Source of the DNA: Dehalococcoidia bacterium
GTDB taxonomy: Bacteria > Chloroflexota > Dehalococcoidia > Plut-88900
Length of the DNA stretch: 64,000 nt
Reading direction: 5' to 3'
NCBI GenBank assembly: GCA_965197585.1
Contig: OZ240215.1
Coordinates: forward strand, 1,088,001 to 1,152,000
Shown here: in pieces, positions 10,589 to 34,339 of the stretch
Layout: each line of letters begins with the position of its first letter
Position numbering within the stretch: position 1 is the stretch's first letter
Made by a program: the position numbers and the translations under genes
Notes under the pieces: model-generated
Told to the model about the DNA's origin: nothing
What the model saw: the letters and a program-made list of their open reading frames with translations, nothing else
Databases searched by the model: none

Positions 10589-11719
10589 ATGGCCAGAAAC
10601 GGGTTCAAAGTGTTGGACAGCGACATGCACGTCATGGAACCGTCAGACCTGTGGCAGACCTACACCGATCCCAAATTCCGAGACCGCGCACCAGTGTTTC
10701 GCGGCGTGGAAACGAGCCACGGGTTCACCAACAAGTGGATAGTCGAAGGCAGGATTTTCCCCGCCCATTCCGACAGGAAACCTCGGACAGAGGTGCTCTC
10801 CGGTCGGCATGAGGCGATAACCGACAGGTTCGCCAAGGCCCGTGCCGCCAAGTTCGACAACGTCACCCAGTTGGAAGCCCTCAAGGTTGAAGGAATCGAC
10901 ATAGCCGTGCTGTTCCGCACATTCGGGGCCCACGTCATTGCTCTCGACGGCCTGGACCCCGACCTTGCTCTCGCCATCTGCGCCGCCTTCAACGACTGGC
11001 TGCATGACTTCTGCTCCGCCGACCCGTCTCGACTCAAAAGCGCCGCCCAGATGCCCATGCACGACGTCGAGAAGGCCACTCAGGAGGCCCGGCGCGCCGT
11101 GAAGGAGCTGGGCATGGTGGCACTCGTTCTACCCTCAAATCCTGTAAATGACCGGCCCTGGTACGACCCCTATTACGACCCGTTCTGGCAAGAGGCAGAA
11201 TCATTGGGAGTACCGGTCTGCTTTCACGGGATACAAGGAGCCTACCAACAGCATATCGGGACCCGGTTCCTGGATTCCTTCGTCATAGCCCACGCTGCCA
11301 CACACCCTATGGAGTTGATGATGGACGTCGGCAGCATGATCGGTGGAGGTGTTCTTGAGCGATTCCCGACCCTCAAGGCCGGGTTCCTTGAAGGCAATTG
11401 TAGCTGGCTTCCCTGGTGGCTCTGGCGGCTCGACGAGGAGTGGGAGACCTTCGGCCCGTGGGAGAGGACAAAGCTAGAGGGCCCACCCTCCGACTACTTC
11501 CGCCGCCAGGGCTTCATCTCCGTCGACGTGGACGAGTTCATGGTCAAGAACGTCATCGAAACCGTCGGGGACGACAATATTGTCCTCTCCACCGACTACC
11601 CTCACCACGACTCCAAGTACCCCGACGCCCTGGCCACATTCCTGGAGATGGACGTCGTACCAGAGCCTTCGAGGAAGAAAATACTCTGGGACAACTGCGC
11701 CAGGCTCTACGGCATATAA
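10589..11719 (+). CDS. Amidohydrolase family 2 protein
   Basis: DSDMHVME, FLEGNCSW, STDYPHHD, DNCARLY. Confidence 0.9.
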   Translation: MARNGFKVLDSDMHVMEPSDLWQTYTDPKFRDRAPVFRGVETSHGFTNKWIVEGRIFPAHSDRKPRTEVLSGRHEAITDRFAKARAAKFDNVTQLEALKVEGIDIAVLFRTFGAHVIALDGLDPDLALAICAAFNDWLHDFCSADPSRLKSAAQMPMHDVEKATQEARRAVKELGMVALVLPSNPVNDRPWYDPYYDPFWQEAESLGVPVCFHGIQGAYQQHIGTRFLDSFVIAHAATHPMELMMDVGSMIGGGVLERFPTLKAGFLEGNCSWLPWWLWRLDEEWETFGPWERTKLEGPPSDYFRRQGFISVDVDEFMVKNVIETVGDDNIVLSTDYPHHDSKYPDALATFLEMDVVPEPSRKKILWDNCARLYGI

Positions 11720-11766
11720 ACGTTTTACATAAGCACACCGAATCATTAACATAAAGAAAGGCATAC

Positions 11767-12924
11767 ATGGACGTTATCAAGATCAGGTCGCAAATTCCCG
11801 TCTGTAGCAACCTTATCTACCTGAACACCGGTTGGTCGGGACCGTCTCCCGAGCCGGTCCTCGACGCCATCAAGGCGAGGATCGACTACGAGTCGGCGGA
11901 AGGGCCGGTCAGCAAGCCGGTTCTTGAGTCGGGCCACGAAATCGAGGACGGCACACGGCAGGCCGTGGCTAGCCTTCTGAACGTTGCCCCGGACGAGCTT
12001 GCCCTGACCCAGAACACCACCGAGGGCCTGAACATGGTGATGGCCGGCTTCCCCTGGCAGGAAGGCGACGAGATCATCACCTTCGACATTGAGCACCTGT
12101 CCGTAATGATCCCCTGTCTGTACGCCGAGAAAAGGCACGGGGTCAAGGTTCGGGTCGTCGAGCTAGGCACCAACGACGAATGGGACACCATCCTTAGCAA
12201 AGTCGAGGCGCAGATGAATCCCCGAACTCGGATGATCGCCTTCAGCCACATCCAGTTTTCCTGTGGCCTGCGCATGCCTCTGGAGGGAATCCGATCCCTG
12301 ACCAAGGACAAGGGGATCTACATGCTGGTGGACGGGGCCCAGACCCCCGGACACATAGCGCTGGACCTTTCGGGGGTGGGCGTGGACTTCTACTCGACCC
12401 CCGGCCACAAGTGGATACTCGGGCCGGAGGGCACGGGTGCTCTGTTCATCAGGCGAGACCACATCGAGATGATCAACCCCTCCTACGTCGGCCACAGCGC
12501 CGTCGACACGGAGAAAAAGCCCCTCGAATTCGATCTTTCCGGGATGAACAAGTTCAAGGTGAGCACCACCAGCGCAGCTCTCGCCGCGGGATACGGAGCC
12601 GCCATCGGCTTCATCAACGATGCCGGCCCCGCGGACATTGAGGCCCGTAACATCGCCCTGTCCAGCTACTTGAAAGCTAAACTGCTGGAGCGTGGCGGCT
12701 ACGATGTTCTCTCGCCGCTGGAAGGCCCGGGCCTCTGCGGTCTCACTTCCTTCCGCGCCGAGGGCGCGACATCCCAGGAAATAGTAGATCGGTTGTGGGA
12801 AGACCACAGGATCGTGGCCCGCTCGGTGGGCGGGGTAGACTGTGTCCGAATCTCATCCGACTTCTACAACACGGAAGAGGAGCTCGACCGGTTCATGGAG
12901 GCACTTTCAGCTATCGTAGCCTAG
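11767..12924 (+). CDS. Class V PLP-dependent aminotransferase (cysteine desulfurase/epimerase-like)
   Basis: YLNTG, NTTEGLN, VDGAQ, PGHKWILGPEGTG, FYNTEEE. Confidence 0.9.
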   Translation: MDVIKIRSQIPVCSNLIYLNTGWSGPSPEPVLDAIKARIDYESAEGPVSKPVLESGHEIEDGTRQAVASLLNVAPDELALTQNTTEGLNMVMAGFPWQEGDEIITFDIEHLSVMIPCLYAEKRHGVKVRVVELGTNDEWDTILSKVEAQMNPRTRMIAFSHIQFSCGLRMPLEGIRSLTKDKGIYMLVDGAQTPGHIALDLSGVGVDFYSTPGHKWILGPEGTGALFIRRDHIEMINPSYVGHSAVDTEKKPLEFDLSGMNKFKVSTTSAALAAGYGAAIGFINDAGPADIEARNIALSSYLKAKLLERGGYDVLSPLEGPGLCGLTSFRAEGATSQEIVDRLWEDHRIVARSVGGVDCVRISSDFYNTEEELDRFMEALSAIVA

Positions 12925-27196: not shown

Positions 27197-28756
27197 ATGA
27201 CCCAAACACCCTTGCCGAATCGTCTGGAGCGAGTAAACAGGGATGCTATCGACCGATTGAGCGAACGGGCATCTTACCTAACCCCCGAGGCTCTATGGGA
27301 AGATGCGGTGCGACACAGGGAGGCTACCGTGGGCCAAGGTGGAGTTCTGGTTGTTAGCACAGGCAAATATACGGGCCGCTCCCCCAAAGATAAATTCATC
27401 GTCAGGGAGCCAGGCTCGGAAGCCAACATATGGTGGGGCCCGGTCAACCGCTCCATGGAACAGGACACGTTCAATCGGCTGCTTACCCGTGTCCTCAATC
27501 ATCTCCGGGCCCGAGACGTCTACTACCGAGACTGCTGGATCGGCGCCGACCCCCGCCACCGGCGTCGGCTTCGCATTTTCACTGAAACTGCCTGGCACAA
27601 CCTCTTTGCCGCAAACATGTTCCTGCCCATGCCTCGGGAACAGGTGGGTCTCTCCGAGTCCGACTTCACCTTTATCCACGCCCCGGGCTTCGCCGCTGAG
27701 TCCGACAGGGACGGCACAAACTCCGAGGCCTTCATCATCATCGACTTCGGGCAGCGAATCGTCCTTATCGGTGGCTCCAGCTACGCCGGTGAAATCAAGA
27801 AATCAGCCTTCACGGTGATGAACTACCTGCTCCCCAACGAGGGCGTCCTCCCGATGCACTGCTCCGCCAACGCGGGCCCCGATGGCGACGTGGCCTTGTT
27901 CTTCGGGCTGTCAGGCACCGGAAAGACCACCCTGTCCGCCACCTCCGACAGGATGCTCATCGGAGATGACGAGCACGGCTGGACCGACGATTCGGTCTTC
28001 AATTTCGAGGGCGGCTGCTACGCCAAGGTGATCCGACTCTCAGAAGAGGCCGAACCCGAGATTTACGCCACCACCCGCCAATTTGGCGCCATCCTCGAAA
28101 ACGTGACCATAGACCTCGACACCCGCGCCCTGGACCTCGACGACGACTCTGTTACCGAAAACACCCGAGGCTCGTACCCTCTCTCCAGCATTCCTAACGC
28201 CGACCCCACGGGCGTCGCCGATGCGCCCAAAAACATCTTTTTCCTGACCGCCGACGCCTTTGGCATCATCCCTCCCATCTCCCGTCTCACTCCCGAGCAG
28301 ACCGAATACCACTTCCTGTCTGGCTACACGGCCAAGGTTGCGGGCACGGAGAGAGGGATAGTAGAGCCCGTGGCCACATTCAGCCCATGTTTCGGCGCAC
28401 CCTTCATGCCCATGCCGCCCCGAGTCTACGCCGGGATGCTGGCCCGCAAGCTCGAAGGCTCCAGCGTGAACGTCTGGCTGGTCAACACCGGCTGGACGGG
28501 AGGCCCCTATGGAGTGGGGCATCGTATGAAGATCCAATACACCCGGGCGATGGTGCGCGCCGCCCTTAACGGCGCCCTTGCTTCTGTCCCGACCGAGGTC
28601 GACCCCGTGTTCGGCCTGCAGGTCCCGGTTAGCTGCCCCGGCGTACCCTCGGAGGCGCTCCGGGCTCGGGACACCTGGGCCGACCCTCATGCCTATGACC
28701 GGCAGGCTCAGAAGCTTCTAGCCATGTTCAACGACAACTTCCGCAAGTTTGGCTAG
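27197..28756 (+). CDS. pckA: Phosphoenolpyruvate carboxykinase (ATP)
   Basis: TGRSPKDKF, YAGEIKKS, GLSGTGKTTLS, LIGDDEHGW, FEGGCYAK. Confidence 0.97.
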   Translation: MTQTPLPNRLERVNRDAIDRLSERASYLTPEALWEDAVRHREATVGQGGVLVVSTGKYTGRSPKDKFIVREPGSEANIWWGPVNRSMEQDTFNRLLTRVLNHLRARDVYYRDCWIGADPRHRRRLRIFTETAWHNLFAANMFLPMPREQVGLSESDFTFIHAPGFAAESDRDGTNSEAFIIIDFGQRIVLIGGSSYAGEIKKSAFTVMNYLLPNEGVLPMHCSANAGPDGDVALFFGLSGTGKTTLSATSDRMLIGDDEHGWTDDSVFNFEGGCYAKVIRLSEEAEPEIYATTRQFGAILENVTIDLDTRALDLDDDSVTENTRGSYPLSSIPNADPTGVADAPKNIFFLTADAFGIIPPISRLTPEQTEYHFLSGYTAKVAGTERGIVEPVATFSPCFGAPFMPMPPRVYAGMLARKLEGSSVNVWLVNTGWTGGPYGVGHRMKIQYTRAMVRAALNGALASVPTEVDPVFGLQVPVSCPGVPSEALRARDTWADPHAYDRQAQKLLAMFNDNFRKFG

Positions 28757-28803
28757 CCGGTGCCCCGAGCACGAAACCCAATGAACCGGCGAGTCCCGCA
28801 GTG

Positions 28804-29706
28804 ATGGGCCAACTGGTAAGCCTCCTCGCCGCGATGCGGCCCAGGCAGTGGACCAAGAACTTTGTTGTCTTTCTGCCCATGGCCTTCACCATCAACCTGG
28901 CCTGGGACCCGGGCAACGTCGGCGAAGTGCTCGACATCCTCGCTTCAGCGGCGTCGGCCTTCGGCCTGTTCTGCCTCCTCTCCTCCGCCGTCTACCTACT
29001 CAACGATCTCGCCGACGCCGAGAAAGACCGCCTTCACCCGAAGAAAGCCTCGAGGGGCGTGGCCTCGGGCCGGTTGTCCAAGGGGCTTGCCGCATTCGCT
29101 GCGATGCTCTTTGTCGGTGCGGCGTTGCCCCTCGGCTTTCTTGTCGAAGTCAGCTACGGCTGGGCCCAACTCGCCTATGTGGGGATATCTGTCGTTTACA
29201 TAAGCATAGTGCGTCAGCTGGTAATTCTTGACGTGTTCGCAATATCGGCGGGGTTCATTGTGCGTGCCGCCGCCGGGGCCCTGGTCATTTCCGCCGACCC
29301 TTCACCCTGGCTATACATCTGCACGGGGCTCGGGGCCCTGTTCATCGGGTTTGCCAAGCGGCGGCAGGAGATGCTGACGCTGAAAGAAGATGGAACAGAG
29401 CATCGGGCCAGCCTGGGCGGCTACTCCCTCCCGATGCTCGACCATCTCATCACTATGCTCATGGCCTCCACCCTCATCGCATACATCCTCTACACCTTCA
29501 CCGCCGACAACCTGCCTCCCAACGATGCCATGATGTTCACGATCCCTTTCGTGGCCTTTGGCATAGCCCGCTATTTCTACCTGATTCACGCCAAACAGGC
29601 GGGCGGCAACCCCGAGGATATCCTGCTCAAGGACGTGCCGATTTTGCTGTCGGTGGCGGGCTGGCTGGCGGCAACTGTGGGCATCCTGCTGGCCTACCGG
29701 GAGTGA
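28804..29706 (+). CDS. Decaprenyl-phosphate phosphoribosyltransferase-like UbiA prenyltransferase
   Basis: RPRQWTKN, NDLADAEKDRLHPKK, ILDV, KRRQE. Confidence 0.88.
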   Translation: MGQLVSLLAAMRPRQWTKNFVVFLPMAFTINLAWDPGNVGEVLDILASAASAFGLFCLLSSAVYLLNDLADAEKDRLHPKKASRGVASGRLSKGLAAFAAMLFVGAALPLGFLVEVSYGWAQLAYVGISVVYISIVRQLVILDVFAISAGFIVRAAAGALVISADPSPWLYICTGLGALFIGFAKRRQEMLTLKEDGTEHRASLGGYSLPMLDHLITMLMASTLIAYILYTFTADNLPPNDAMMFTIPFVAFGIARYFYLIHAKQAGGNPEDILLKDVPILLSVAGWLAATVGILLAYRE

Positions 29707-29749
29707 GGTGATCCCCCACCCCCGCGCCTCGCTCGACCCTCCGATGCTC

Positions 29750-29820
29750 TCGGCCAAAGGCGGACTCACAGCCCGATCGGGGCCGGGAATGATCCGCCTG
29801 AGGCGGACAGGCTCCCCTCG
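29750..29820. repeat. Short palindromic CCGCC-nnn-GGCGG mini-elements
   Basis: GATCCGCCTGAGGCGGACAGGCTC at about 29791-29814 resembles GATCCGCCGAGGCGGGAGGCTC at 62223 and 62419. A degenerate CGGCCAAAGGCGGAC lies at 29751. Confidence 0.55.
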
Positions 29821-29828
29821 GGGGGGGG

Positions 29829-31217
29829 TTATTCATAGCCTTTTCTGAGGCGGCCGGTGGCGCGGCGGGGGATGTAGTGGGAGGCGTGGACGAGGAGGGC
29901 GAGGGAGGATAGGAAGTCATCGTGGCCTTGGGATGGTTCTACGAAGAAGTTGATGGTCTGGTTGGGTCTGATTACGCTCCTTGCCTTAGAGATTTGGGAC
30001 CAGAATTCTTGGGACTCGGGGGAGCCGTCGGGCTTGTAGATTTGGAGCCTGCCGGAGTTGACAGAGGCCAAGAGGTCAAAGCCGAGGTCGGACTTGCTGC
30101 GGGCGGTGAAGGTGAAAGGTTTGACGATGGAAGATCCTAGACGTTTGCGCAGGAAGGCGGCGACGCCTGCGCCTATACCGGTGGCGTCGACGATAACTCT
30201 GCGGCAGCCCCATTTTTCTTTGAGGATGTGGACGAGGGACGAGAAAATCTCGGTATGGGGCCTGCCCGTCCACCAGTGGTGCTCGACTACCCGAAGGGAG
30301 GGGAGCACGAACCCGCTTCCGTCGTCGAGCGAACAGAGTTCGCCAATGGTGACGACGGTGGAGTCCCGTAAGGGCTCGTTGGCCCTGAGCCCGCCGTTAG
30401 CGGGCCCGTCTGACTCGCCAGCAAGGTCTATGCCGGCGACGTATGTGCGCTGAGCAAGGGGAACGCGTAAGCGGCAGTGGTTGCCTTGGAGAAGGGCCAG
30501 CCGCGTATTATCCAGGAACCTTCCATCGTTGGAGACGGGAGTGAGGCAGTACTGGGAGAGGAAAAGGGGGTGATCGCTACCGAGGCGGACCCGTTCAGCC
30601 TCGACGTAGCGTTTGTAGTGAGGGTTGAATTTGGCGACGGCCTGCCAGTCGAACTCGAAGTGGCGGCGGATGCCGTCTGAGCGTTGGAGTTCGAGGTTTG
30701 ACTGCTTGGACTGTTCGAGGAGGGAGTCTTCGTCCCAGGCGGTGCCGTAGTGGACGGTGGTGACGTTGGAGGATGCACCCATAGGCATGAAGTCTCGGTT
30801 GAACTTATCAGGAGATACGTCCTGGGATTCATCTACTTCCAATAGTGTGTCGGCGGTGTTGCCGACGACGTTGCTGGAGGGGTGGGCACTGAGAAATAAC
30901 TGGCGGGCGCGGTGTAAGTGAAAAGTGCGGCCGAGCTTGGAGTAATAGGGGGCTAGGCAGGCGCGGTCCATGACCTGTTGGAGGCGAGAGATGCTGATGT
31001 TGACCTGCGGGTCAAAGGTAGGTGCGGCCTTGATGGCGGCACCACCGACCTGGGAGAAGGCAGTAAGCAGGTAAGCCTCAATATGGGCGGATAGCTCGTT
31101 CTTGCCGCCCTGTCGGGCGATCATGACGGAGAAGGATAGGCCCTTGCGATGGCGGACGCTATCGATGACGGCAGTGGCTATCTCCTGCTGGTAGGGCCTG
31201 AGATCGTGAAGGGTCAC
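29829..31217 (-). CDS. Phage terminase large subunit-like ATPase/nuclease
   Basis: LRPYQ adenine-binding motif, ARQGGKN Walker A, LLEVDESQ Walker B, YGTA motif III, and RNase H acidic motifs GIDLAG, VDATGIG, HDD. GTGA overlap with the upstream ORF. Confidence 0.85.
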   Translation of the reverse strand: MTLHDLRPYQQEIATAVIDSVRHRKGLSFSVMIARQGGKNELSAHIEAYLLTAFSQVGGAAIKAAPTFDPQVNISISRLQQVMDRACLAPYYSKLGRTFHLHRARQLFLSAHPSSNVVGNTADTLLEVDESQDVSPDKFNRDFMPMGASSNVTTVHYGTAWDEDSLLEQSKQSNLELQRSDGIRRHFEFDWQAVAKFNPHYKRYVEAERVRLGSDHPLFLSQYCLTPVSNDGRFLDNTRLALLQGNHCRLRVPLAQRTYVAGIDLAGESDGPANGGLRANEPLRDSTVVTIGELCSLDDGSGFVLPSLRVVEHHWWTGRPHTEIFSSLVHILKEKWGCRRVIVDATGIGAGVAAFLRKRLGSSIVKPFTFTARSKSDLGFDLLASVNSGRLQIYKPDGSPESQEFWSQISKARSVIRPNQTINFFVEPSQGHDDFLSSLALLVHASHYIPRRATGRLRKGYE

Positions 31218-31435
31218 CAAGGGGTGACTCCGGCGATGCCGAATACGAACTGGAGCATGGCGGCGACCATTACGAAGAAGAAGAGGATGTTGATGCGGCC
31301 CTTGACCTCGGCGACCTGCTGTTGAAGTTCTGCGAGACGCATTTCAAGGACGGCGTCGAAGGTGGATTCGGGCCGGATGGCGGGAGGCGCGACGGTGTGG
31401 GGTTTGCGGTTGAATATGTTCATCGGGTTAATCAT
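31214..31435 (-). CDS. Small coiled-coil + TM protein in the terminase cassette
   Basis: RLAELQQQVAEVKGRIN followed by ILFFFVMVAAMLQFVFGIAGV. ATGA/GTGA couplings on both sides. Confidence 0.7.
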   Translation of the reverse strand: MINPMNIFNRKPHTVAPPAIRPESTFDAVLEMRLAELQQQVAEVKGRINILFFFVMVAAMLQFVFGIAGVTPW

Positions 31436-31830
31436 GCGTTTTCGTTCCAGGGGATTCTGTCGAGTCCCAGAGTGTCGGTGGCTTCTCTGAGCATGTTCTC
31501 GATGGCCTTGCCGTCAGGGTCCTGGGAGTCTCCAGAGGCACGTATCTTGGCGGCGTAGGCGCGGATAAGGAGTTCGATAACCTTGAGTATTCGGGGCTCG
31601 TTTTTGACTATATTGACAAGGAGTCCTCTGAGGCGAAAACGGAGGAAGGCGACTTCCTGGTCGATTCCTTCGATCACCCCTGCTTCTGCGAGGACTTCTC
31701 TCATTTCATCGATCAACACAGAACCGTAGAAGGAGTCACCCGGGACGCCGGGATTGCGGGCGCGGCGACCCCGGGGTTCCTTGGACTCGGGGCGCGGGTT
31801 GGGTAGGGGGTTGGGGGTCTTTCTGGTCAT
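31432..31830 (-). CDS. Putative terminase small subunit-like protein
   Basis: 132 aa, basic N-terminus, helical GIDQEVAFLRFRL core, AAAGGA RBS. First gene of the operon upstream of TerL. Confidence 0.6.
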   Translation of the reverse strand: MTRKTPNPLPNPRPESKEPRGRRARNPGVPGDSFYGSVLIDEMREVLAEAGVIEGIDQEVAFLRFRLRGLLVNIVKNEPRILKVIELLIRAYAAKIRASGDSQDPDGKAIENMLREATDTLGLDRIPWNENA

Positions 31831-31912
31831 TCGGCAGTCCTTTCGATCTTTTCGTCAATTCAGCTTGTTCCGGCAAGGGGCCCGGCCCTTATGCGGGCCC
31901 GAGTCGGAGTGC

Positions 31913-31942
31913 AATATAGAATATGTGTACTAGGTTAGTCAA
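31913..31942 (-). promoter_or_regulatory. Promoter of the terminase cassette with SOS (LexA)-box-like palindrome
   Basis: TTGACT-18-TATATT on the minus strand. TAGTAC-ACAT-ATTCTA (31917-31932) covers the spacer and the edge of the -10. Confidence 0.6.
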
Positions 31943-32002
31943 TGGGTCCGTGTCACTTTTGGGTGGCGGGCTCGCGCGAACCGATCCTACGGGAGGAGAG
32001 GA

Positions 32003-32103
32003 ACCCTCACCCCCTTGCTCCCCCTCTCCCTTAGGGCCTTTAAGGGAGAGGGGGAGATATGAACAGGGGCAGACGCATGTGCGTGGCACATGCGTCTGCC
32101 CCT
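32003..32103. repeat. Cluster of REP-like palindromes
   Basis: CCCCCTCTCCCTTA..TAAGGGAGAGGGGG hairpin, and a perfect 18-bp stem AGGGGCAGACGCATGTGC-GTG-GCACATGCGTCTGCCCCT (32065-32103). Confidence 0.7.
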
Positions 32104-32155
32104 AGTTCAGTACTGAGGGGAGGGGTGGATTGACTGGTGTCGGGGGTGGGGGAGT

Positions 32156-32184
32156 TTGACACCGAGAGCGTGAATAACTATAAT
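32156..32184 (+). promoter_or_regulatory. Consensus sigma70 promoter of the rpmH operon
   Basis: TTGACA-17-TATAAT exact consensus. Confidence 0.9.
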
Positions 32185-32210
32185 CGGCATTCCTAAACGA
32201 GTCTGAAAAC

Positions 32211-32348
32211 ATGCCTAAAAGAACCTATCAACCAAAGAGGTTGCCCCGAAAGAGGAAGCACGGGTTCCGTGCCCGAATGAGTACCCGAGGCGGACGTGAC
32301 GTTATACACCGCCGAAGGGCCAAGGGCAGGACCAGTCTGAACGTTTAG
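32211..32348 (+). CDS. rpmH: 50S ribosomal protein L34
   Basis: Not in ORF track. Translates as [45 protein letters not shown]. Confidence 0.97.
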
Positions 32349-32385
32349 GGCTTACAATTTCGAACACTAAAGAAAGGGGAGCCCG

Positions 32386-32748
32386 CTGCTGAAGGGTACG
32401 GCCAGGGATCGAAGGCTCAAAAAGAGCCGCGACTTTGATCGGGTCCTCAGGAGGGGCAAGCGCAGGGCAAACGGGTTTCTGGTACTCGGCGCCATTCCCA
32501 ACGGTCTTGAAGTCAGCAGGTTCGGCTTCTCGGTTGGAAAGAGAGTCGGCAACGCTGTCCGGCGGAACCTCGTAAAGCGTAGACTGCGGAACATCATGAC
32601 TGAGCTGTGCGGCCAGGACGGATGGGACCTCGTAGTCATCGCCAGGAAGACCGCCTCAGAGGCCGGATACCGTGACCTTAAGATGGCTTTAACCGGTCTG
32701 TTGCGATCGAGCGGCCTGCTCGGTAAACGTAACGCCAGCGCAGTTTAA
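32386..32748 (+). CDS. rnpA: Ribonuclease P protein component (non-canonical CTG start)
   Basis: Not in ORF track. RLKKSRDFDRV, RFGFSVGKRVGNAVRRNLVKRRLR, WDLVVIARK. Lies between rpmH and yidD. Confidence 0.92.
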   Translation: MLKGTARDRRLKKSRDFDRVLRRGKRRANGFLVLGAIPNGLEVSRFGFSVGKRVGNAVRRNLVKRRLRNIMTELCGQDGWDLVVIARKTASEAGYRDLKMALTGLLRSSGLLGKRNASAV

Positions 32749-32750
32749 GC

Positions 32751-32972
32751 ATGGTCCCTAAACGGCTTGTCCTGGCCCTGATCGGCTTTTATCGCCAGTT
32801 TGTATCTCCTTACTATGGCCCCGGCCCCACCTGCCGCTATCTCCCAACTTGCTCTGAATACGGCCAGGACGCGGTCGAAAGATACGGAGCCCTCAAAGGC
32901 GGCTGGTTGACTATCCGGCGGATCGGCCGGTGCCATCCACTATCAGCAGGCGGGTACGACCCAGTACCTTGA
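32751..32972 (+). CDS. yidD: Membrane protein insertion efficiency factor
   Basis: CRYLPTCSEY, RCHP..GGYDPVP. Confidence 0.95.
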   Translation: MVPKRLVLALIGFYRQFVSPYYGPGPTCRYLPTCSEYGQDAVERYGALKGGWLTIRRIGRCHPLSAGGYDPVP

Positions 32973-33031
32973 AAGGCCATCACGTAATTCCCGGCAATAA
33001 CCGCCTCCCTCAAGAGGCGTCTGTCCGCGAT

Positions 33032-34339
33032 ATGATTTCTCGGGTATCACCGACGCCCGCCTTGGCGTCGGATGAGGTTCCCGTCTCTCGCATCCGGTCG
33101 CGAAAAGTGACCGGCAAACTTCTGCTGATCCTTCTATTGGTTGGGCTGCTTGCTACTCTTGCCTGCAGCCGAGCCGGTCTGGGCATCAACTTCGAGGGCT
33201 GGGGTGGCCCGACCTCCATCGGCAACTCTGTTTACATACCCACAAAGAAGGACGCCGACCAGGCCAGCATTCGGGTTATCGATGCGGTCTCCGGAGCTGT
33301 TAACGGCATGTTCACGGCGACCGGTGAGTCCACGTCCATTTACGGCGCACCCGTCCAGGGACCCGGAGCTGATGGTCAAACTACCTTCGTCACGGTAATC
33401 TACACCGCCGACGGTCAGAGCTACGGCAGGGTCTTCGCCATTGGGCCGGACGGCTTCGACAGCCCCGTGTGGCAGTTTCCCGAGGTCGGGATGGACTCCG
33501 TTGGCTCCATATTTGGCGGTGTGGCCTACTCACAAGCCACCAACACCGTCTACTTTGGCGCCGACGATGGCATGTTGTATGCCCTGGACGCGGGCACCGG
33601 AGAGCCGAAGCTTGGCACCGGAGGCGTTTTCTTCCCCGCCGAGGCTCCTATCTGGTCGACACCTATGGTCGAGAACGGCGTGGTCTATTTCGGGACCATG
33701 GACGGCATCCTGTACGGCGTCGGCGAGACCGGTGGCAAGATTCTTGAGTTCAAGGCCGGGGGGGCCATTACCGCAACCCCGATAGTCGAGGAAGGAATTG
33801 CTTACGTCGGCTCCTTTGACAAGAACTTCTACGCCGTGCCCGTCAACGGAGGCCTGAACGCCACGCCCCGCTGGATATACTCTACCAACGGCTGGATCTG
33901 GGCCGACGCCCTCTTCGCCGCCGATGCAAGAGGACAAGACTTTATCTTCGTATCTTCACTTGACGGCAGCGTGCAGGCCGTCAACGCTGCCTCCGGTTCC
34001 CCCCTCTGGCCCAATCCTTTCATCGCCTCCGAGGGCATCCGCGGCACACCGGCACTGGTTAGCAAGACGGGTGGCGGCAGCCAGTTCTCCAGTCTCGCCG
34101 ACAAGGTATTGGTAGTCGGGTCCAGGGATGGCATGCTATATGGCCTGGACCCGCAGACCGGGGCTCCTGCATGGGAGCAGCCCTTCAACACCCGGGCCCT
34201 GGGCGACGGTGACGGCCAAATCCTTGCGCCTGTCGCCTCCCGAGGCAACGCAGCCTTTGTGGTCACGTCGAAATACGATATATTCGCAGTTGACGCGAAT
34301 ACCGGACAGGCATTGCCGGGCTTCACGTCTCTACAGTAG
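33032..34339 (+). CDS. PQQ-type (BamB-like) beta-propeller lipoprotein; start uncertain (ATG 33032 or GTG 33107)
   Basis: Lipobox LATLAC and repeated blades (VYFGADDGMLYALDA, GSFDKNFYAV, GSRDGMLYGLD). Confidence 0.85.
   Translation: MISRVSPTPALASDEVPVSRIRSRKVTGKLLLILLLVGLLATLACSRAGLGINFEGWGGPTSIGNSVYIPTKKDADQASIRVIDAVSGAVNGMFTATGESTSIYGAPVQGPGADGQTTFVTVIYTADGQSYGRVFAIGPDGFDSPVWQFPEVGMDSVGSIFGGVAYSQATNTVYFGADDGMLYALDAGTGEPKLGTGGVFFPAEAPIWSTPMVENGVVYFGTMDGILYGVGETGGKILEFKAGGAITATPIVEEGIAYVGSFDKNFYAVPVNGGLNATPRWIYSTNGWIWADALFAADARGQDFIFVSSLDGSVQAVNAASGSPLWPNPFIASEGIRGTPALVSKTGGGSQFSSLADKVLVVGSRDGMLYGLDPQTGAPAWEQPFNTRALGDGDGQILAPVASRGNAAFVVTSKYDIFAVDANTGQALPGFTSLQ

Follow-up and report, generated by a model that had tools for sequence, protein, structure and literature searches.

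An intact terminase cassette in a Dehalococcoidia chromosome is a paralogue of the terminase module of a phage-like capsid locus

We analysed a window of 64,000 nucleotides (G000:C1:1088001-1152000) from a Dehalococcoidia bacterium whose 3.43-Mb genome is a single contig (completeness 91.9%, contamination 6.9%). Genomes, loci and families are designated throughout by anonymous codes (G-numbers, L-numbers and labels such as f6 or f14), the genome of the window being G000. In the ORF list the window contains a cassette of three overlapping minus-strand open reading frames (ORFs) of 132, 73 and 462/463 amino acids (aa), for a small-terminase-like protein (TerS), a putative membrane protein and a large terminase (TerL). 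The genome yielded a single phage-like head gene set, and the window cassette proved to be an intact paralogue of the terminase module belonging to it. The cassette is selectively maintained, has its own promoter, and has been gained, inverted and replaced over short evolutionary times. The comparisons suggest, with about an even chance of being right, that it supplies an alternative terminase, working in trans, to a domesticated particle resembling gene transfer agents (GTAs), to the benefit of the host.

The window cassette and its paralogue at the capsid locus

The longest of the three ORFs encodes a true, intact large terminase, as judged from its fold and motifs. Direct sequence searches gave no significant match in Pfam, NCBIfam or the Protein Data Bank (PDB), and the matches to terminases in PHROGs were weak (best phrog_5909, 7.1e-6). 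A TerL profile searched against the PDB reached an E value of only about 1, with the G20c terminase nuclease. When homologues were aligned, PF17289 (Terminase_6C) matched 13 of the 30 sequences, and the motifs RQGGKNE (residues 36-42) and LLExDE (126-131) were found to be invariant or nearly so, as for the Walker A and the Walker B/catalytic Glu of an N-terminal ASCE ATPase; the former motif conforms to RQxGK, the terminase-type Walker A also present in T4. Among the nuclease acids, D265, D345 and D435 were invariant and D434 nearly invariant. The AlphaFold2 (AF2) model had a mean pLDDT of 64, with the C-terminal domain better modelled. Foldseek analysis of this model against the PDB revealed that the 11 best matches were all full-length large terminases (E 2.1e-12 to 2.9e-7), including HK97 (6z6d, 2.1e-12), T4 gp17 and Sf6 gp2. 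The ATPase domains of T4 and P74-26 were matched as well, and so was the G20c nuclease 5m1o (E 8.5e-6, TMt 0.67). The profile and fold searches agree with the initial annotation of this DNA, made from the sequence alone, which had read the protein as a TerL with ATPase and nuclease motifs intact.

Searching the genome with the window TerL identified a second full TerL at 2872277-2873662, with 77% aa identity. The whole cassette proved to be duplicated at about 80% nucleotide identity, its paralogue lying at 2.872-2.874 Mb of the same chromosome. When the window copy (cassette A) was compared with this second copy (cassette B), the identities were 77% for TerL, 90% for the membrane protein and 41% for the TerS-like protein. 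Cassette B belongs to a head and neck gene set spanning 2.86-2.874 Mb (locus B). On the 3′ side of its TerL gene follow, in order, genes for a portal, a cupin, a membrane protein, an extracytoplasmic function (ECF) sigma/anti-sigma pair, a major capsid protein (MCP), an adaptor, proteins of 662 and 152 aa, and a major facilitator superfamily (MFS) transporter. The portal is of the SPP1 type (PF05133 1e-14, phrog_64 1.9e-27), the MCP has the HK97 fold (phrog_212 8.9e-75) and the adaptor is of the SU10 type (SU10_adaptor 1.3e-6); the 662-aa and 152-aa proteins fell into no family. The window TerL stands without an adjoining portal or capsid gene, and its locus-B paralogue has both nearby. The capsid locus keeps the same host flank, the MFS gene, across the genus and in G010. 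Searches of the genome for the other TerL families PF03354 and PF03237 and for the portal family PF04860 found nothing. In a check confined to tyrosine integrases, the genome gave 10 matches, none of which comes closer than about 230 kb to the window locus or about 650 kb to the capsid locus.

The initial annotation had proposed, as one of two readings, that the cassette was a packaging motor for a dispersed GTA-like particle, and had suggested searching the rest of the genome for portal and capsid genes. That search succeeded, revealing a host-resident locus elsewhere on the chromosome without a tyrosine integrase nearby, and the idea of a dispersed, host-kept phage-like system therefore stands. 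A role of the cassette as the lone motor of such a system does not: because the capsid locus has its own TerS-membrane protein-TerL cassette, the window cassette is not the missing motor, being instead an extra paralogue confined to the genus.

Some further features of locus B were observed. The ECF sigma/anti-sigma pair lies within the portal-capsid locus on the opposite strand (G000 2866048-2867626; L011 8049-9624), is kept there across the genus and in G011, and is a candidate host regulator of the capsid module. Directly upstream of the locus-B cassette, at G000 2874908-2876536 (L011 16909-18537), an N6/N4 DNA methylase is encoded next to a nuclease of the PLD family with a DpnI-like C-terminal domain, and the two are likely to be a restriction-modification pair. 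A portal fragment of 56 residues (G000 2868385-2868552), 93% identical to residues 378-433, is situated ~1 kb downstream of the intact portal gene.

The TerS-like gene lies directly upstream of the TerL gene and is translationally coupled to it, an order that is the same in the genus, in the class and in loci from the IMG/VR database. The junction between the TerS-like gene and the 73-aa gene reads GCATGATT, an ATGA overlap, and that between the 73-aa gene and TerL reads TTGGTGACC. TerL has 463 aa when read from 31220 and 462 aa when read from the GTG at 31217; the latter start gives a GTGA overlap and a 462-aa protein, and the database entry also has 462 aa. Both overlaps of the three coupled minus-strand genes had been described in the initial annotation and were read directly in the sequence. 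In the 20-sequence family of the TerS-like protein, PHROG models named 'terminase small subunit' matched a few class-level members (phrog_1889 two, best 6.9e-9; phrog_370 one; phrog_509 one). The AF2 model of the 132-aa protein is all-helical (pLDDT 65) with a disordered N-terminus of 40 residues, and a profile search against the PDB gave nothing. The 73-aa protein has a heptad-like stretch followed by a hydrophobic C-terminal tail, as read directly from the sequence. In several other class families, genes for its homologues likewise stand between those for TerS and TerL, and in the genus the gene is present in 14 of the 20 cassettes and missing from six.

Pfam matches on both sides confirmed that the cassette is flanked by housekeeping genes, as first annotated: a GlmS-like gene, pckA (PEPCK_ATP) and UbiA on one side, and rpmH (L34), rnpA (RNase P protein), yidD, a PQQ propeller gene, yidC and Jag on the other. 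Among the window ORFs and in a repeat search, the cassette showed no recombinase gene, no integrase and no att-like unique repeat. The initial annotation had also called the window free of portal, capsid and integrase genes, which holds, all genome matches lying outside it, and free of att repeats, where one correction applies: hairpin repeats resembling repetitive extragenic palindromic (REP) elements do flank the cassette. As hallmarks of transposable elements, only these generic REP-like repeats were seen at the junctions of locus A (the window site) and of a further site, C1, in an analysis of the junctions that was not exhaustive.

The cassette has a promoter of its own (Table 1), and its -35/-10 pair could be aligned in 20/20 genus cassettes at every locus. 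The upstream region common to the 20 cassettes comprises a GTGACAC box, TTGAC(T/A), 18 nt, TAT(A/C)(T/A)T, a hairpin, a conserved block and GAAAGGA. The fold energy of the leader was no better than that of shuffled sequences (z -0.2). Solo copies of the promoter and leader without genes occur elsewhere (L042, about 11690-11800). A terminator-like hairpin was scored at 29812-29828, inside the REP-like repeat that follows TerL, and this repeat had a high summed contig depth in metagenome runs. The REP-like repeat that stands here between the cassette and the rpmH promoter is found in other genomes on the opposite side of the cassette or on both sides. An Rfam search of 28500-33500 returned only spurious, below-threshold miRNA-like hairpins within the REP repeat, and in the four sequencing runs examined the contigs were short and none spanned the cassette ends.

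Two observations concern the surroundings of the cassette. REP-like G+C hairpin repeats are abundant throughout the genome, with dozens of copies at 70-95% identity that fill intergenic regions and flank every cassette. A perfect sigma-70 promoter precedes rpmH at 32156-32184 on the plus strand (TTGACA, 17 nt, TATAAT, 12/12), and homology with the other genus genomes restarts after the cassette exactly at this promoter.

Table 1. Features in and around the cassette, in window coordinates
Feature	Position	Strand	Basis or remark
Small-terminase-like protein, 132 aa	31432..31830	-	ORF; disordered Pro/basic N-terminus, then helical hairpin
73-aa protein, coiled-coil-like stretch and C-terminal hydrophobic anchor	31214..31435	-	ORF, sequence reading
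Large terminase, ATPase and RNase-H-like nuclease, 462/463 aa	29829..31220	-	ORF, motifs, fold
Internal TerL segment, codons about 195-376	30093..30641	-	Recurs as partial copies elsewhere in the genome
Sigma-70-like promoter, TTGACT-18 nt-TATATT	31913..31942	-	Consensus scan; alignment of 20 cassettes
5′ leader: G+C hairpin, conserved GCCGAAA..AACTGAATTGCC block, GAAAGGA ribosome-binding site	31831..31912	-	Alignment of 20 regions
REP-like hairpin repeat just 3′ of the TerL stop	29772..29828	.	About 20 genomic copies, 87-95% identity
REP-like hairpin repeats between cassette and rpmH promoter	31967..32146	.	Dozens of genomic copies

Turnover, selection and allele shuffling within the genus

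The nine genomes of the genus contain one to four full TerL copies each, with four in G004 and in G007 and two in G000. The portal and the MCP are single copy in 5/5 genus genomes searched, against two to four full TerL copies, and it is in this genus only that the terminase module is multiplied. All genus TerL copies form one clade (support 100), within which the locus labels are not clustered, locus A requiring 7 changes for 8 rows. Locus A extends from the end of UbiA (29708) to the rpmH promoter (32156) and is filled in eight of the nine genus genomes, four cassettes being opposite to UbiA and four co-oriented with it. In G003 the flanks are 94-97% identical, yet 950 bp of unrelated sequence stand at the cassette site; in G009, of the sister genus, there are just 842 bp between UbiA and YidD. 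G004 and G007 carry cassettes at two more sites, C1 and C2; G000 has an empty site at C1 and no cassette at the C2 position. When G000 and G005 were compared, synonymous divergence (dS) was 0.09-0.16 for housekeeping genes and 0.089 for the locus-B TerL, against 0.64 for the locus-A TerL; because of this excess over the flanks, we conclude that the locus-A cassette was replaced in one lineage. The locus-A allele of G005 and G002 lacks the membrane protein gene. These results overturned the assumption in the initial annotation of a stably inherited core gene: the site is empty in G003 and G009, is occupied in either orientation, and its alleles are incongruent with the flanks. The idea of a single ancient duplication passed down vertically at locus A was rejected on the same three grounds, the incongruence being that in dS. 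The filler in G003 (L202 7311-8854; ~950 bp) is G+C-rich and structured-looking, with no Rfam match.

Full-length open frames were found in 20/20 genus cassettes examined, with the catalytic motifs invariant; we also noted a stop inside the TerL match of G010 and an internal repeat in G001_B. The ratio of nonsynonymous to synonymous divergence (dN/dS, omega), estimated pairwise by the Nei-Gojobori method with our own script, was 0.10-0.37 for TerL pairs including orphan copies and 0.25-0.29 for the window TerL against other copies. It was 0.06-0.18 for the portal, 0.08-0.15 for the MCP and 0.07-0.16 for three housekeeping genes. The TerL values lie below 1, the outcome that the initial annotation had anticipated for a maintained gene.

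The TerS alleles of the genus have identities of 27-94% (median 40), and they are shuffled with respect to both TerL and locus. For G000_B and G005_B, TerS is 36% identical, but the TerL genes are sisters (dS 0.089) and the portals 98% identical. The TerS closest to that of G000_B is found at locus A of G006. In the mechanism that we propose, the cassette TerL would dock in trans on the single portal and pump DNA into the resident procapsid. The choice of DNA would be set by the cassette's own, highly divergent TerS, such that each extra cassette would represent an alternative packaging specificity, and the membrane protein may determine where or when packaging or release takes place. Recombination at intergenic sites rich in repeats would account for the gain, inversion and replacement of cassettes.

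One internal TerL segment (Table 1) recurs outside the cassettes. G000 has about 15 partial matches to it at 41-61% aa identity, and it is also found in every genus genome; examples in G000 are 504500-505720, 3022162-3023283 and 1577740-1579155, and further ones are in L117-L121. The G000 copies are degraded, some with tandem internal duplications of 30 residues. Copies are better preserved in G006-G008, where five retain a 175-codon open frame and have an omega of about 0.3, based on 11-16 differences per class. The idea that the segments are internally deleted cassettes with their ends retained, resembling miniature inverted-repeat transposable elements was unsupported, the internal TerL piece and generic repeats being all that they share with the full cassette. 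The segment may be a coding mini-domain, a site acting in cis, or a piece that a repeat has captured.

The parent module in the class, the phylum and viral contigs

More than 3,600 proteins matched the window TerL. The best 120, at 55-100% identity, are unnamed or 'hypothetical', and the named sources among these 120 are Dehalococcoidia metagenome bins. At E <= 1e-30 a TerL match was present in 193 of 301 class genomes, corresponding to 161 of 242 high-quality genomes and 114 of 181 genera; the class tally includes the unpublished genome G230 and the phylum tally below the unpublished G339. As counted from the table, about 165 of the 184 positive genomes outside the genus have a single match. 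The initial annotation had mentioned similar ORFs in Dehalococcoidia. Families are mostly all-or-none (f6 18/19, f14 9/9, f16 17/19 and f30 8/8 versus f22 0/19, f24 0/8 and f29 0/7), and TerL is kept in genomes of 0.8-1.5 Mb. A comparison of the TerL tree with host relationships, as had been suggested, revealed that the tree follows the host families: 25 family labels on 61 rows need 25 changes (minimum 24; shuffled mean 48; 0/200 shuffles as low), the trees being quick searches with support from the Shimodaira-Hasegawa-like approximate likelihood ratio test (SH-aLRT) only and the comparison being one with family labels.

When about 9 kb were fetched on each side of TerL, a portal gene was found near it in 36 of 56 class loci, several of which also carry the MCP, the adaptor and the 662-aa gene. 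In f14 and f43 TerL and portal are separated or the genes are arranged differently. At the phylum level, 90 of 251 genomes matched at E <= 1e-40, of which 70 were outside the class, again family by family. Among isolated phages (five records in all), none was closer than 34% identity to the window TerL. IMG/VR contains 139 contigs with TerL relatives at 51-57% identity, and its 29 loci of at least 12 kb have the usual order TerS-TerL-portal-MCP-adaptor-662-aa gene. In literature on GTAs and prophage terminases of Dehalococcoidia and Chloroflexi, in which subscription journals were thinly covered, we found no such module described.

Alternative explanations and comparison with known systems

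A number of observations weigh against the cassette being an alternative terminase for a domesticated particle. The 132-aa protein itself has no match in Pfam, PHROGs or NCBIfam, and its model has none in BFVD at E <= 0.001. Locus B is interrupted by host-like genes (cupin, ECF sigma/anti-sigma) and repeats, and therefore might be non-functional. Occupation of locus A is patchy, with empty sites in G003 and G009, and the incongruence of its alleles with the flanks is as compatible with a selfish or recently exchanged element as with one that the host keeps. The omega of TerL is above that of the portal, the MCP and the housekeeping genes. Between distant genus members, the dS of portal and TerL is 0.6-0.9 versus 1.2-1.7 for housekeeping genes, a difference that could reflect horizontal spread. 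The many decayed TerL fragments demonstrate that copies do die, and a search of sequencing runs found no RNA run containing the stretch. Furthermore, a tyrosine integrase homologue lies just upstream of TerS in at least 20 IMG/VR loci, and the contigs with an integrase make up a single clade within the family, adjacent to f14. Because integrating, perhaps active, relatives exist, domestication of the parent module in this genus is likely but not proven.

A rival explanation is a selfish hitch-hiker, a minimal satellite of 2.1 kb that consists of the terminase only, packages DNA from its own recognition site through the resident capsid and portal, and spreads by transduction and homologous recombination with the conserved flanks. 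The terminase module alone is multi-copy, there are at least four insertion loci with presence/absence polymorphism, and both orientations occur at one site; the locus-A allele was swapped between close relatives, the locus labels are unclustered on the genus TerL tree, and the TerS alleles are shuffled. We nevertheless consider this explanation possible rather than probable. We saw neither a recombinase nor terminal inverted repeats nor a clean target duplication; the flanks are generic REP-like repeats that occur throughout the genome, and no pac site is known. Moreover, such a pattern could arise in the absence of selfish drive if cassettes are duplicated and repeats recombine ectopically. 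That the cassette is instead debris, the functionless leftover of a degraded temperate phage, is unlikely. The TerL fragments scattered through the genome, the integrase-bearing relatives in IMG/VR, the interruptions of locus B, the stop in G010 and the internal repeat in G001_B are all consistent with decay, but every one of the 20 genus cassettes is full-length with invariant catalytic motifs, omega is low for orphan copies too, the promoter is conserved, and the site is filled in all but one of the genus genomes. The initial annotation had named patchiness, nesting among recent temperate phages, absence from sister genomes and relaxed selection as signs of such a remnant. The site is indeed patchy, being empty in G003 and in G009 of the sister genus, and integrase-bearing IMG/VR elements (~18.5 kb) nest in the family, whereas selection on the cassette is not relaxed.

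The IMG/VR contig L130 (18,518 bp) bears on the possibility that locus B and the cassettes are inducible and belong to a still-active small temperate phage or capsid-forming satellite, the host-tracking tree reflecting co-divergence and site-specific integration. This contig is circularly permuted, with the halves of the 662-aa gene at its two ends, and besides the same TerS-TerL-portal-MCP-adaptor-662-aa order it has genes for a tyrosine integrase (PF00589 1.2e-34) and for proteins resembling an exonuclease and PolX. The contig may represent the whole of a small temperate phage, or of a capsid-forming satellite, that lives in this group of bacteria. The clade of integrase-bearing contigs inside the family and the low dS of portal and TerL between distant genus members point in the same direction. 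We found, however, no homologue of the L130 integrase in any of the fetched chromosomal loci (L041-L121, about 9 kb on each side of TerL), and none of the 10 integrase matches of G000 is near either locus. The module is also split or rearranged in several families and is kept in the 0.8-1.5 Mb genomes, and we regard present activity of this kind as improbable. Least probable of all is a machine repurposed away from capsids, such as a membrane-tethered DNA translocase or nuclease for defence, DNA uptake or secretion. The small membrane protein gene conserved between TerS and TerL in many lineages and the lack of a portal at the window locus would suit it, but the trio, membrane gene included, is also found next to portal and capsid genes, both at locus B and in further families; six of 20 cassettes lack the membrane gene, and no defence genes were noted beside the cassette, where no PADLOC search was made.

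That the cassette is an alternative terminase, working in trans for a domesticated particle, remains our preferred reading. A bolder reading, which we offer as speculative and rather doubtful, is that 'terminase-only' satellites (~2.1 kb, promoter-TerS-(membrane protein)-TerL) multiply and exchange TerS alleles inside a genus and thereby re-aim one anciently domesticated, podovirus-like Chloroflexota capsid at different DNA sites, such that the host or the cassette would choose the exported DNA; the parent would be an unrecognised, phylum-wide GTA-like element. To our knowledge, GTAs are known from few lineages. If the module is GTA-like, a large and environmentally important group would be added, with the module in about two thirds of the sampled class genomes and in other classes of the phylum, and this group would include genomes of 0.8-1.5 Mb. 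It is unusual for the terminase module alone to be multiplied, with fast-exchanged TerS alleles, when portal and capsid genes are single, and this raises the testable question of whether the choice of TerS decides which DNA leaves the cell. The 139 matches in IMG/VR also call for caution, as virus-calling pipelines list such chromosomal modules as viral contigs.

Compared with the large terminases of tailed phages (HK97, T4 gp17, Sf6 gp2; 6z6d, 3ezk, 4iei), the window TerL has the same two-domain fold of an ATPase and an RNase-H-like nuclease, the same Walker-A-like RQxGK, Walker B hhhhDE and three acidic nuclease residues. It differs in being only 10-15% identical to solved large terminases and at most 34% identical to that of any isolated phage, and in that no Pfam N-terminal terminase model matches it.

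Phage-inducible chromosomal islands (PICIs) and capsid-forming PICIs are islands of about 10-15 kb that have att sites and carry an integrase gene together with genes for regulation and replication. Those with their own terminase subunits share with the cassette an additional terminase specificity by which a capsid encoded elsewhere could be redirected, and the related IMG/VR elements, which join an integrase to TerS-TerL-portal-MCP in about 18.5 kb, resemble them further. Unlike PICIs, the window cassette measures only about 2.1 kb, has three genes and no integrase, replication or regulatory genes, and carries TerL besides TerS; no helper phage was found in the genome in the PF04860, PF03354 and PF03237 searches.

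GTA particles contain random host DNA, and their own full gene set is not transferable. Like the GTA of Rhodobacter capsulatus (RcGTA), locus B is a chromosomal, phage-derived head cluster with no integrase found nearby, and the two share a wide distribution that tracks the host, purifying selection and parts at more than one locus. RcGTA is siphovirus-like, whereas the set described here looks podovirus-like, with an SPP1-type portal, an SU10-type adaptor and no tail tube or tape-measure genes seen, and its host belongs to the Chloroflexota (Dehalococcoidia). In addition, it is the terminase module alone that is multiplied here, with strongly divergent TerS alleles.

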